This document shows, piece after piece, positions 37,374 through 40,890 of a DNA stretch of 64,000 nucleotides. The number at the start of each line of letters is the position of its first letter. The stretch's first letter is position 1. The DNA is from Nitrospirota bacterium. GTDB lineage: Bacteria; Nitrospirota; Thermodesulfovibrionia; Thermodesulfovibrionales; Dissulfurispiraceae. The notes beneath the pieces were generated by a model that saw only the letters and a list, made by a program, of their open reading frames with translations, was not told the DNA's origin and searched no databases. Location: contig CAWBMP010000002.1 in assembly GCA_963790025.1 (NCBI GenBank), forward strand, positions 1-64,000. The letters are read 5' to 3'. The position numbers were made by a program, and so were the translations under genes.

Positions 37374-37728
37374 AGTTGTTACCTCCCGTGGACATTATTA
37401 TGATGGAACCACAAAACTGCGTCTCCGAAGACAACGCATTTCCTAATATGCAGCCCTTTTTTCCAGGTCTGCCACATTTGAACCATTTGGTGCCGATTCG
37501 AAAGAACAAACAATTATATCATATCAAGGGCTGTGAAAAGTACAGTATGCAAAACAAAAACCTGGACCCATCATTGGTTGTCACCAGGATCGATCCGGGT
37601 TTCCTAGTTCCTTTATGAGGTCAGCAAAGTGCCCGAAAAATTAAGTACCCAAATGAAAACATATTTTATTTCAGATCTAATACAGAATGATGGCAGCCTG
37701 ACTGAAAGCGGCATTGTCGTTTTCTGAA

Positions 37729-37923
37729 TTAACGTTGGCGTGCCGGGACGAACGATATTACCAACTTTCTTTTCAGGGCCTTCGTTACCCTTTCCAGGAA
37801 TTCCAAAGACGGCATTCTTTTATCATTTGGGTTTTCAAGCCGGGCTATGCTCTGCTGCTTTGTGCCTATCCGCTCGACAAGTTCCGCTTGTGATATCTTC
37901 TGGGCCTTCCTTAAAGTGGCAAT
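37729..37923 (-). pseudogene. XRE/Cro-C1 HTH protein remnant lacking a start codon (not in ORF track)
   Basis: Manual translation IATLRKAQKISQAELVERIGTKQQSIARLENPNDKRMPSLEFLERVTKALKRKLVISFVPARQR*; no in-frame ATG/GTG/TTG before the upstream stop. Confidence 0.75.
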
Positions 37924-37990
37924 TCCTTGCCGGGATAAGCAATCATCAAAACCGGAAGCAGGAAAAAGCGAAAAAAGGCAATAAAATCAA

Positions 37991-38010
37991 ACGGAGGGGT
38001 GAGATTCGAA
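37991..38010 (-). other. Degenerate tRNA(Ser-like) 3'-end fragment (att-like)
   Basis: Minus strand TTCGAAT-CTCAC-CCCTCCG; flanked by direct repeat ATTGGAGAC x2 near 38070-38089. Confidence 0.45.
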
Positions 38011-38183
38011 TAGAACGGATTGAAGCACAACTGTTTGATTTCTAAAGCACTCTCGCTCGGCAAAAGCCCATTGGAGACAGATTGGAGACGGCAAGTATTT
38101 ATTGTTCTTCCTCTGCGAGCTTCAAAAGACGCTCACTTCTCCATACACGGTGGCAGTTTCCGTTAAACACTATCGCGCCTTGT

Positions 38184-38351
38184 TCACGGACGCCTGAGGA
38201 ATCTCAAGTAGAAAGCTACGAACACCAAGACAATGCCAATATTCACTGTTAGCCGTTCCCAGAATCGGTTTCTGAAGAACACGAAATCTACACCGACTAT
38301 GACGGCTGCCATCGCCACCACGTAAATCACGACAGCTACCTGTCTGCCCAT
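38184..38351 (-). CDS. Small two-TM membrane protein
   Basis: MGRQVAVVIYVVAMAAVIVGVDFVFFRNRFWERLTVNIGIVLVFVAFYLRFLRRP. Confidence 0.6.
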   Translation of the reverse strand: MGRQVAVVIYVVAMAAVIVGVDFVFFRNRFWERLTVNIGIVLVFVAFYLRFLRRP

Positions 38352-38603
38352 TTCAGGTAAATCCTCTCCGGCTACGCGGCCGACCGGCACCCGCTATTCT
38401 ATGCGGCGTCAACACCAAACCTCAGTCCCACACACGAGCTTAGTATAATTGTAGCACTCATTGGTTGGTTTCTTAAAGGCTTTTTATCGGGCGAGATGTT
38501 TTCTTATCACTGCTGACGATTGCCGATTTCTACCACTTTTGTTTCATTATCCTTTCAAGCAATGAAAATTAAGGGAAAAATGAGTGGGGTCTACCATAGG
38601 ATT

Positions 38604-38800
38604 TATGCAGATGACTATGGCAGCTTTATTCATGTAAGATATGCTTAACGGGGGTGTGGCTTGTGGGGTCAGTGGCCTGTTCATTCAGGCTCACTTGAGT
38701 CTGAAATGCCGCCTCCGTCATCTGCATCATCCTCAAAAGGGTCGACCGGGATGGTGCCAAATGTGGCTCTGTAAGTAGACGAGACCTGAGGATGATAATC
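38604..38800 (+). ncRNA. Predicted IS110 bridge RNA
   Basis: Stems 38605-15/38717-27 and 38726-35/38787-96; loop guides GTGGGGTC (38663-70) and AGTCTGA (38698-704) match target, CGGGATG (38747-53) and GTAGA (38775-79) match donor junction. Confidence 0.8.
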
Positions 38801-38820
38801 TTGTCTGCAAAGGAGACTAC

Positions 38821-40020
38821 ATGAAAAAAGATGATCCCCTCGAACTGCGTGTAAGCGTCGATATTGGCTGCCGCAGTCACAACGTTGCAATCGGCCTATC
38901 CAGCGGTGAAGTCCTCGATGAATTCTCAATCGTGCATGAACCTGAAGGGTTCCGGCAATTCTTCTGTCGCATCGAGAAGCAGGAGCAAAGGTTTAGTTGT
39001 CCCGTTGCCGTAGCAATGGAGGGCTTCAACGGCTACGCACGTCCGCTGGACACGCTCGTTCGGGCCCGCAATTATCGCCTCTTCAATATCAACAATCTCA
39101 AGCTTGCTCGATTCAAGGAGATATTCCCCGGTGCCGCGAAGACCGATGCAATCGACGCAAGGAAAGGACTGGAGCTTTTTCAGCTTCGAGATCATCTGCC
39201 GATAGCCAAGGATGTGCTGCAGGAGGTACGCAAAACGCCGCGGGACAACGACATTCTAAAGCGGCTATCACGGCGCCGACGTCGTTTGGTCGATGAGCGA
39301 GTACGGGTAGTAAACAACCTACAGGCCGATCTTCACGCTGTATGTCCGGGACTTCTGGAGATTACCGGTGAGGCCGACAATATGTGGTTTCTTGGATTTC
39401 TGACCAGCACGGATGACCTTCGCACGCTTGCACGCATGCGGGAAACAACTATCCGCAAGATCCCGGGCATTGGTAAGAAATATGCCTCTGTTATTGTTGA
39501 ATGGCAGAAAACAGCACAGTTTAGTCACGACGTCGAGTGGGTCGGTGAAATGATCCAGGAAGATGCAATCCGCGTGATGGAACTCCATGCCAAGATAAAA
39601 TCACTTGAAGCAAAGATGGAGGGTGTTGCACACGGCTCGGATATTGCGCAAACGCTCGCAACCATTCCAGGATTCGGTTCCATTTGTACATCTGAACTCG
39701 CCGGAGAGATTGGAACTATCGAGCGCTTTGGCAGCGAAGCAAGTCTGGCTCTGTATATTGGGATGGCGAATCTTGACAATAGTTCAGGCAAGCAAAAAGG
39801 ATCAAAACCACCAACGCAGGTTAATACTCGGGCTAAGGCCGCAATGATGGTTGCCGTAGATCGGCACCGAAAACAAGTTCCGCAGTCTCAACAATATTAT
39901 GAGAAAAAAAGAGCTGAAGGCAAGAAACATAACCAGGCACTACGTGCGCTTGGTCGTCATCTTTGCCGTGTTATTTTCAAGATGCTGAAGGAGAACAGAG
40001 GGTACATCTTATCTAAATAA
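38821..40020 (+). CDS. IS110-family DEDD recombinase/transposase
   Basis: SVDIG, AMEG, KTDAIDA (DEDD); TIPGFG; DNSSGK serine motif; ALRALGRHLCRVIFKML; AGGAG RBS. Confidence 0.95.
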   Translation: MKKDDPLELRVSVDIGCRSHNVAIGLSSGEVLDEFSIVHEPEGFRQFFCRIEKQEQRFSCPVAVAMEGFNGYARPLDTLVRARNYRLFNINNLKLARFKEIFPGAAKTDAIDARKGLELFQLRDHLPIAKDVLQEVRKTPRDNDILKRLSRRRRRLVDERVRVVNNLQADLHAVCPGLLEITGEADNMWFLGFLTSTDDLRTLARMRETTIRKIPGIGKKYASVIVEWQKTAQFSHDVEWVGEMIQEDAIRVMELHAKIKSLEAKMEGVAHGSDIAQTLATIPGFGSICTSELAGEIGTIERFGSEASLALYIGMANLDNSSGKQKGSKPPTQVNTRAKAAMMVAVDRHRKQVPQSQQYYEKKRAEGKKHNQALRALGRHLCRVIFKMLKENRGYILSK

Positions 40021-40054
40021 GAAAAAATATATTGAAAATTCCAGCGGGATGTTC

Positions 40055-40137
40055 AGACTTAATACTTGCATTGCTACTGCCCTATTGTTCATTGTCTTTA
40101 GATAACCGAAGGATTAATCAAGTATTAAGTCTGACCC
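40055..40137. repeat. REP-like 19-bp inverted repeat; left arm interrupted by IS110
   Basis: gggtc(38587-91)+agacttaatacttg(40055-68) versus caagtattaagtctgaccc(40119-37). Confidence 0.8.
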
Positions 40138-40371
40138 AAGAGTGATACTCCCTGACACTCCCGGCAGTCTTATCTTTTGTTGATCAACCGGACAATCAAT
40201 TTCATAATGGTTGTTTTTTTTAGGAGCCGGGGAATACAGCGAGGGGTAAACAACCAACCTACCCTCCCTGTCGGATTCAACAGTTTTGTTGTTTTTTGTT
40301 TTAACCATTCCCTAATGTACCAAAACCCTCGGCGGACACACCAAATTAGCTGCGTATTCCATGCAGCTAAA

Positions 40372-40890
40372 TCAGTCAAATAAAATTGATTTGAGTTTGA
40401 TAACATTTTCATCTTCAGGATTACAAAGTTCCGAACATTTATCAAGAGAGACTTCTACTTTGCTCAATGCTGCCGCAAAAGACATACACGTCGGGTATCC
40501 ACATTTCTTACAATTGTTTTTTGGTAATAATTTATAAATATTCAGGGCAGGGATATGCTTGAACTTCTTATCATTAGGTTGCATTGAATCTTTTTTGGAG
40601 TAAATATCATTGAGAAATTCAATGAGCTTTTCAATTGTTGTAATAGCGTGGGCCTTGTTTTCTACCACTGCCAAAACACCATTATCCGGATATAGTGCAC
40701 AGTGGAACTCATTAAAATTAAATTTAATATAATGCGGCTTATCAAAATATAATGGTTTTGTTGCTACCGCATTGATATATGGGAATAACGAAGAAATATC
40801 AGAATTAAATTTAAATTTAACCTTAAATTCTAAACTACCTGCCTCACACTCACGCCTTTCCAAAATAATATCTGAATATTCTATTATCAT
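40372..40890 (-). CDS. (Fe-S)-binding domain protein
   Basis: C-terminal IYKLLPKNNCKKCGYPTCMSFAAAL...C. Confidence 0.8.
   Translation of the reverse strand: MIIEYSDIILERRECEAGSLEFKVKFKFNSDISSLFPYINAVATKPLYFDKPHYIKFNFNEFHCALYPDNGVLAVVENKAHAITTIEKLIEFLNDIYSKKDSMQPNDKKFKHIPALNIYKLLPKNNCKKCGYPTCMSFAAALSKVEVSLDKCSELCNPEDENVIKLKSILFD

Follow-up and report, generated by a model that had tools for sequence, protein, structure and literature searches.

The closest described relatives of the element reported here are IS621 from E. coli and ISCro4/IS622, whose recombinases run from a RuvC-like DEDD domain through a coiled coil to a Tnp domain with a catalytic Ser-Gly. Published accounts of these systems describe for IS621 an RNA encoded in a long left end (LE) with two internal-loop domains, each loop having a 5′ side that repeats, in the same sense, its left half-site and a 3′ side that is complementary to the right half-site, the core included. 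They also describe a discontiguous right donor guide (RDG), one base 3′ of the right target guide (RTG) and one 3′ of the RDG that are complementary to position 7 of the other substrate, a promoter split between a -35 box in the right end (RE) and a -10 box in the LE, and a target within a palindromic repeat. Predicted bridge RNAs are reported for 85.7% of IS110 elements (Durrant et al., 2024, PMC11208160), and the characterised orthologues in these sources are few, all IS621-like with CT cores (PMC11208160; PMC11208158; 10.1101/2025.05.14.653916). Sequence counterparts of the IS621 features listed above can be read in a stretch of 64,000 nucleotides from a Nitrospirota bacterium (NCBI GenBank assembly GCA_963790025.1, contig CAWBMP010000002.1, positions 1 to 64,000 of the forward strand; hereafter the window). 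Judged from its sequence, the segment 38590-40054 is very probably a single complete IS110-group insertion sequence, 1,463 bp long plus a duplicated TC core, that encodes a bridge RNA and a DEDD/Ser recombinase and is predicted to be RNA-guided. An earlier note on this DNA had proposed as much; its observation is confirmed and its interpretation is supported by the analyses described here.

The IS1111 group shares the recombinase family and the guide logic, with its seekRNA or bridge RNA encoded in the right end (PMC11208160), a long right end and long subterminal inverted repeats (7-17 bp). The layout here is that of the IS110 group, with the RNA encoded upstream of the gene in an LE of 229 nt and with an RE of 32 nt, and no end-to-end long inverted repeat was found among the 25 longest repeat pairs listed. 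Membership of the IS1111 group is ruled out by the 32-nt RE and by the location of the RNA in the LE.

The sole long open reading frame (ORF) of the element encodes a protein of the same length as its closest homologues. It matches PF01548 (DEDD_Tnp_IS110, E = 7e-21) and PF02371 (Transposase_20, E = 1e-16) in Pfam, both above the cut-off, as well as the NCBIfam model NF033542, “IS110 family RNA-guided transposase” (164.6 bits, cut-off 140). Six residues (D14, E67, D109, D112, S322, and G323) are invariant in 15 homologues with 71-90% identity. The catalytic residues reported for IS621 are D11, E60, D102, D105, and S241, with G242 also named (PMC11208158). A phmmer search against the PDB sequences returned only ISCro4 (9t56) and IS621 (8wt6), at E ~0.003, with KTDAIDAR lying over KTDTVDAR of IS621, MEG over MEA of ISCro4, and S322-G323 over the first SG of an ESGSS stretch in IS621. 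By these aligned letters, and not by residue numbers, the motifs are taken as the equivalents of IS621 D102/D105, E60, and S241-G242; D14, which lies outside the alignments, would be the counterpart of D11 by position and invariance only. An AlphaFold2 model of moderate quality (mean predicted local distance difference test score 77.2, predicted template modelling score 0.53) placed ISCro4 (9t56) and IS621 (8wt6/8wt9) at ranks 1-10 of a Foldseek search against the PDB (E 7e-10 to 1e-8, 16% identity, template modelling scores of 0.47 by query and 0.55-0.58 by target), and Nop5-type proteins came next in the list. Thus, the IS110 recombinase with intact DEDD and Ser motifs that had been read from the sequence is upheld by Pfam, NCBIfam, Foldseek and the invariant residues. 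Compared with IS621, the protein has a longer middle region (residues 161-270, window 39301-39630), in which KIPGIGKKYA forms a second helix-hairpin-helix-like motif besides that of the Tnp domain; the motif is weak, with Pfam HHH families matching the region at E 0.0075-0.1, all below their cut-offs.

Upstream of the gene, the RNA folded from 38592-38820 has a z-score of -3.85, no shuffled sequence out of 200 folding as well, and its centroid contains two domains. The bridge RNA probably spans ~190 nt, from ~38605 to ~38796. An inverted-repeat search recovers the outer stem (38605-27/38705-27) and the base of the second domain (38726-35/38787-96, complementary at 10 of 10 positions). For comparison, we collected homologous proteins (3,486 matches, the best with 90% identity, the named ones from Geotalea and Geobacter) and 80 related loci from a scan of one genome per species, and aligned 38 of the related left ends. 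Across this alignment, 95.3% of cells are paired, and shifting the partners by 1-3 columns lowers this to 37.6-48.4%. Both positions have changed in 22 of the 46 pairs; none of 500 shuffles does as well on these measures, and one does on the number of further pair types. The RNAalifold consensus of the same sequences has 17 compensatory pairs out of 42. The two internal-loop domains upstream of the recombinase, as first proposed, are thus kept across the relatives, and the individual stems are present with adjustments to their limits. The stems given as 38605-15/38717-27 and 38726-35/38787-96 overlap at 38726-27, and stem P1 was tested as 38607-15/38717-25 so as not to overlap P4. The stem 38650-60/38708-16 is real, pairing 11 nt with 9 nt through a 2-nt bulge at 38656-57, and so is the inner hairpin given as 38671-95, in which the pairing is 38672-79/38686-94 with 38691 bulged.

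The long-range stem P1, which encloses a variable hairpin together with the target-binding domain, is supported. RNAalifold also proposed an alternative to it (columns 66-68/139-141) that shows compensatory changes too, six of them at 67/140; these columns could pair only in place of the top three pairs of P1, one of which shows two such changes. Pairs that RNAalifold placed within the loops, between the left target guide (LTG) and the RTG (columns 85-87/122-124) and between the left donor guide (LDG) and the RDG (173-174/222-223 and 177-178/217-218), were set aside, as they show no compensatory changes; one of them, the column pair 178/217, includes the RDG position whose changes follow the LE. 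The covariance model R1, derived from the tested structure, has its only match in the window at this site (217.5 bits, the sequence being a member of the seed). Among the 80 loci, 78 have a match immediately upstream of the recombinase gene, the two misses (L047 and L067) being cut off at a contig start. When 60 distinct sequences are aligned by the model, and hence fitted to the structure, 95.7% of cells are paired and 26 of 43 pairs are compensatory.

Both loops can be read against the ends of the element and the DNA around it (Table 1). The strings listed in the earlier note all lie where it placed them: the shared sequence at 38584-91 and 38663-70, AGTCTGA at 38698-704, CGGGATG at 38747-53 and 40045-51, and GTAGA at 38775-79. 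In the 64-kb window, both strands considered, GTGGGGTC occurs at two sites only, 38584-91 and 38663-70, and the inverted-repeat search returned an 11-nt match between the RTG and the right junction. The LTG, RTG, and RDG all cover the TC core, and the LDG matches its first base only. A sigma-70 promoter, TTGAAA-17 nt-TACCAT, would form only at a circle junction in which the RE is joined to the LE: among 45 distinct RE/LE combinations, 31 have TTGAAA at exactly the 17-nt spacing, and TTNNNA is common to every one. In the integrated state, no promoter-like site was found on the + strand upstream of the RNA.

By analogy with IS621, we propose that the element would excise as a circle, and that joining of its ends through one TC would create this promoter and allow transcription of the RNA and the recombinase gene. 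The DEDD/Ser recombinase would bind the bridge RNA, which would pair simultaneously with the circle junction GGGATGT-TC-TACCA and the genomic site TGGGG-TC-AGACT, and strands would be exchanged at the TC core. Transcription, RNA-protein binding and catalysis are expected from the same analogy; the window’s copy may still be mobile, and the element may likewise be expressed and reprogrammable. It could instead be a fixed and immobile relic of the same element type, its matches the frozen record of one past insertion and its RNA and protein no longer made or active. The single copy in the window, the integrated state without a promoter-like site, and a nearest relative that is only 90-91% identical, with no identical sister copy seen, would all fit such a relic. 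Nevertheless, we consider this unlikely: the ORF is of full length (399 aa) with all catalytic residues present, all stems are intact with both domains in the centroid, the model score is high even if that of a seed member, the LTG and RTG agree with their flanks at eight of eight and seven of seven positions and so show no visible decay, and a promoterless integrated state is what the family model leads one to expect.

The predicted function as guides was examined across the relatives, in which the LTG is almost constant (UGGGGUC) and the RTG is highly variable. For the RTG, 65 loci gave 40 distinct 7-mer pairs, matching at 7/7 (10 pairs), 6/7 (12), 5/7 (9), 4/7 (7), or 3/7 positions (2), for a total of 221 matches against 177.4 ± 5.4 (standard deviation) in shuffled pairings. 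For the LTG, the corresponding numbers are 73 loci and 31 distinct pairs (7/7 in 7, 6/7 in 10, 5/7 in 10, 4/7 in 3, and 3/7 in 1), with 174 matches against 154.9 ± 3.2. In neither case was any of 20,000 shuffles as high, and both tests gave 0/20,000 again with one row per distinct guide, so that the two target guides do covary with the flanks, which is the check that the earlier note had suggested. The RTG of L062-75 and the LTG of L051-55 were read from the model-based alignment. Matching is higher for cognate than for non-cognate pairs only at right-flank positions 3-7, positions 8-12 lying at background and serving as an internal control; since the signal ends at flank position 7, the RTG is 7 nt long. 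In blind scans, 17 of 46 distinct relatives had the reverse complement of the flank 7-mer at the guide position, and the 11,244 positions scanned held no other occurrence. Likewise, 25 of 53 distinct relatives had the left flank (five bases plus TC) at the guide position, with no other occurrence among 13,033 positions. The latter scan skipped 26 loci (no anchors or flank), and four loci with a second GATGTGGC-like site were counted with corrected anchoring.

These comparisons also bear on the idea that the left end is a leader regulating the recombinase gene, with the protein itself reading a conserved GGGGTCA and the loop/flank matches arising as by-products of conserved ends and a conserved target. 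The left target half TGGGGTC and the LTG are both near-constant in most relatives, so much of the LTG match could be due to shared conservation, and the LDG and the RE are invariant. However, the variable RTG tracks unrelated host DNA, its reverse complement matching the right flank as TCAGAGTAA in three copies (L044-46), TCACAAG in L059, TCAAGTT in L080, and TCAGATC in L031; a further match is TCAGACT in L061. Moreover, the rare LTG variants change together with their own flanks, as in L079 (GTACTGTC, 8/8), L080 (CTCTGTC), L042 (AGCGGTC), L041 (GGTGTC), and L051-55 (TTTGGGTC against TT(T/C)GGGTC). With matches at the loop positions only, and with no shuffle in either guide test reaching the observed totals, we regard a mere leader as very improbable.

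Under the bridge RNA interpretation, the donor loop would pair with the joined ends of the element, with a complementarity of 7 nt plus the first core base for the LDG and of 5 + 2 nt for the RDG. The LDG string CGGGATG is weak evidence alone, as there are 19 copies of it in the window; it is invariant in all 38 aligned sequences, and L077/L078 in the wider set have TGGGATG. On the right side, G or A at 38775 tracks C or T at LE position 3 in 29 of 29 distinct guide/LE pairs, and UG at 38770-71, beyond a 3-nt bulge, is complementary to LE positions 4-5 in 25 of 26 distinct relatives. L042 has a compensatory A with LE TACCTT, which breaks an alternative intramolecular G-U pair, and in L051 and L079/80 the RDG pairs contiguously over 7-8 nt. 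The reverse complement of GTCTAC at 38589-94 is GTAGAC, and G precedes TC in all left flanks listed. The bases A38705 and C38780 are each mismatched with their own substrate and complementary to position 7 of the other, position 6 being complementary in neither; in the published handshake guides, the bases that follow the RTG and the RDG on the 3′ side pair with the other substrate at its positions 6-7 (PMC11208158; 10.1101/2025.05.14.653916). In L014 and L020, donor position 7 is A and the loop is unchanged.

The limits of the element follow from copies in other genomes. In one Methylococcales genome, twelve copies agree fully from GTC|TACCAT through GATGTTCAG and differ outside, and four copies in a Geminicoccaceae genome are identical from TC|TACCAC through TTCA and diverge just outside. 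Three uninterrupted copies of the Methylococcales target (those of L062, L070, and L072) read GGTG-TC-AGTCATTG, with a single TC. Together, the multi-copy genomes and the uninterrupted targets fix a 2-bp TC core, the one originally proposed. At the junctions of the element in the window (T-TC-A on the right, G-TC-T on the left), only TC is common, and DNA similarity to the closest loci, L001-L005, spans 38571-38586 to 40041-40060, that is, the element and a few conserved target bases. A longer core (GTC), shifted boundaries, or no duplicated core at all could be entertained, as G precedes the left TC in every copy and similarity to relatives starts at 38585/6, before the proposed left end, which makes the left boundary unreadable from conservation alone, but we give such alternatives hardly any weight, since TC is all that the junctions share, the uninterrupted targets hold it once, and the invariant G is explained by the target and the handshake base C38780.

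Several observations weigh against the assignment as a TC-core, bridge RNA-guided element. Sequence similarity to IS621 is marginal (phmmer E = 0.003, 16% identity), and a T as second core base is described as almost invariant for IS621 and its relatives (PMC11208158), where this core has C. Rfam 15 gave no match in the whole window at gathering scores and, at E up to 10 on 38300-40400, only chance-level matches far below their cut-offs (CRISPR-DR63, mir-219, SorX), so that no curated RNA family covers the RNA. The guide-flank shuffles ignore kinship among the elements; agreement is imperfect, with a match of at most 4/7 in nine of the 40 distinct RTG pairs and four of the 31 LTG pairs, and the close relatives L003 and L004 match their right flanks poorly. 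On the donor side, GGGAT is invariant in both LDG and RE, which leaves the left pairing without covariation support, and the RDG covariation may amount to one or two evolutionary events. In every relative, the LDG reads CGGGAUG-G-U-G against CGGGATG-T-T-C in the RE, with position 7 and the second core base unmatched. Finally, with a single copy in the window by the covariance model, there is no evidence of recent movement. Regarding the LDG, the earlier note had rightly pointed out that its match does not extend perfectly through the core. Position 7 of the left donor (LD) is reported to tolerate mismatches in IS621 (PMC11208160), whose LDG is 8 nt long and whose LTG is 9 nt long (PMC11208158); by the published numbering, the IS621 LDG would cover LD positions 1-7 and the first core base only. 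The imperfect match is therefore a family-wide trait with a parallel in IS621 and no defect of the window’s copy.

Table 1. Features of the element and its insertion site (window positions; LT and RT, left and right target; RD, right donor; MFE, minimum free energy)
Feature	Position	Strand	Remark
LT, GTGGGG	38584..38589	+	Host DNA adjoining left core copy; identical to LTG loop
Core dinucleotide TC, left copy	38590..38591	+	Sole sequence common to both junctions
LE, encodes bridge RNA	38592..38820	+	Covariance-model match
Predicted -10 box TACCAT, also start of RD	38592..38597	+	TACCAT in 37/45, TATCAT in 6/45 distinct RE/LE combinations
Stem P1, 5′ strand	38607..38615	+	Pairs with 38717-38725; 5/9 pairs change on both sides, e.g. 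columns 21/144 GC 20, AU 14
Variable hairpin region between P1 and P2	38616..38649	+	Hairpin in MFE fold; poorly conserved sequence
Stem P2, 5′ strand	38650..38660	+	Pairs with 38708-38716; 38656-57 bulged; 99.7% of cells paired, 4/9 compensatory
LTG GUGGGGUC, core included	38663..38670	+	8/8 identical to 38584-91
Inner hairpin P3, target-binding loop	38672..38694	+	7/8 pairs compensatory, 94.0% paired
RTG AGUCUGA	38698..38704	+	7/7 complementary to TC+AGACT (40053-59)
Putative handshake base A, target loop	38705	+	Complementary to donor position 7, T40052
Stem P2, 3′ strand	38708..38716	+	Same helix
Stem P1, 3′ strand	38717..38725	+	Same helices
Stem P4, 5′ strand, base of donor-binding domain	38726..38735	+	Pairs with 38787-38796; 96.4% paired
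Stem P5, 5′ strand	38740..38743	+	Pairs with 38783-38786; 2/4 compensatory (3/4 in covariance-model alignment)
LDG CGGGAUG, then G, then U	38747..38755	+	CGGGAUG = 40045-51; G mismatches T40052; U matches core T40053
Inner hairpin P6 (GCCA/UGGC), donor-binding loop	38756..38767	+	98.4% paired, mostly invariant
Discontiguous 5′ part of RDG (UG)	38770..38771	+	Complementary to A38596, C38595
RDG GUAGA	38775..38779	+	Complementary to TC+TAC (38590-94)
Putative handshake base C, donor loop	38780	+	Complementary to target position 7, G38589
Stem P5, 3′ strand	38783..38786	+	Same helix
Stem P4, 3′ strand	38787..38796	+	Same helix
Putative ribosome-binding site AAGGAG	38811..38816	+	Four bases before ATG 38821
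IS110-family DEDD/serine recombinase, 399 aa, intact	38821..40020	+	Pfam, NCBIfam, Foldseek
RE	40021..40052	+	Similarity to relatives stops at 40056-60; single-genome copies diverge after TTCA(G)
Predicted -35 box TTGAAA	40032..40037	+	17-nt spacing to TACCAT after RE-LE joining through a single core
LD CGGGATGT	40045..40052	+	7/8 positions match LDG; conserved in relatives
Core dinucleotide TC, right copy	40053..40054	+	Same basis as left copy
Host palindrome	40053..40137	.	Far arm extends as CCC (40135-37), mirroring GGG left of element
RT AGACT, host DNA	40055..40059	+	Complementary to RTG

The element occupies the left arm of a small host palindrome. This intergenic site is flanked by two minus-strand genes, a small ORF (38184-38390) on one side and a gene for a putative Fe-S protein (40372-40890) on the other. 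The arms at 40053-68 and 40119-34 are perfectly inverted copies of 16 nt; in the absence of the element, they would have 19 nt in common (GGGTCAGACTTAATACTTG), spanning the insertion point. Before insertion, the site would have read GTGGGG, a single TC, and AGACTTAATACTTG. The closest relative, L001, shows the same palindrome arrangement, with GGGG. For ISPpu10, an IS110-group element of Pseudomonas putida, a target-encoded stem-loop is described as a second specificity determinant (10.64898/2026.03.19.712850), and the target here likewise lies in sequence capable of forming a stem-loop. However, an inverted copy accompanies only 5-6 of 57 distinct right flanks among the relatives, so that no structural requirement is indicated, and a palindromic target is rejected as a rule of the family. 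The far arm of the palindrome (window 40119-40140, minus strand) reads CTTGGGTCAGACT, a second and unoccupied near-target with one mismatch to the LTG 7-mer. Further to the left, ~800 bases beyond the small ORF (window 37400-38180) contain no ORF longer than ~100 aa on either strand and no Rfam match.

In L031, L051-L055, L058, L059, L062-L075, L077, and L078, the left end carries an insertion of ~100 nt between TACCAT and P1; it contains inverted repeats with TTATCCACA-like words, and the window’s element is without it. We take these words to resemble the DnaA-box consensus. Directly upstream of the element in L001 (2118-2253, minus strand) is an inverted 136-nt fragment of the recombinase gene, with 87.5% identity to window 39136-39271. 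The L056 copy sits inside another IS110 gene, as shown by a VAMEGYNGYARPLD-like peptide encoded in its left flank. Short repeats of an element’s own target, in tandem or close by, precede some of the copies: GATAGGGGTCACACA is repeated ahead of the junction in L077 (~2100-2140), GGGGTC units are repeated in the left flank of L014, and an uninterrupted TTGGGGTCAGATG lies 9 nt upstream of the junction in L036. L077 and L078, on different contigs of one assembly, differ in their left flanks and share the same right flank over the 42 nt shown; they may be part of a larger mobile unit, or the right side may be a repeat.

Overall, the element is a divergent example of the kind of RNA-guided recombinase described in 2024, and calling the recombinase “distinct”, as was first done, overstates the case: a member of its clade, found by a peptide match, is already among the data that Durrant et al. 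(2024) give for their recombinase tree, as row 386 of Supplementary Table 1, with no ISfinder name. Within the portion of that supplement available to us, matches to Geobacter, Geotalea or IS names yielded nothing useful, and no use of the phrase “TC core” with IS110 or bridge RNA was found among the 12 papers listed, which is a weak negative. Compared with IS621, with which it shares ~16% identity, the recombinase has 399 aa as opposed to the 326 residues given by the last published domain boundary. The core is TC here and CT there, and the RTG is 7 nt here (core plus five) and 4 nt there. The LTG (~7-8 nt) is almost fixed across this clade, in contrast to the IS621 survey, where variation lies in the first loop. 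P1 encloses a 5′ hairpin together with the target domain, whereas the published consensus has a separate 5′ stem-loop (PMC11208160), and LD position 7 is mismatched in every relative here.

For genome annotation, a single IS110 insertion such as this one is an ordinary result. Practical interest in bridge recombinases comes from their use as programmable tools to insert, invert, and excise DNA, and a well-delimited, divergent orthologue provides natural variation against which to ask how general each feature of the IS621 model is; on offer here are a TC core, a natural 7-nt RTG, a fully readable guide set, and ~80 relatives that show which guide positions vary. More tentatively, the clade could be a mechanistically distinct branch of the bridge recombinases. 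We consider this rather doubtful, though it is suggested by a core with C where IS621-type enzymes almost always have T, a recombinase ~70 residues larger with a second helix-hairpin-helix-like motif in its coiled-coil region, a three-way-junction RNA, and a left guide (UGGGGUC) that is near-constant across many phyla with only the right guide drifting. If so, half of the target would be under an extra constraint, potentially because the protein itself reads GGGG or because the ends of GGGGTCA...TGACCCC palindromes are preferred, and in nature such a system would have only half the freedom to retarget.

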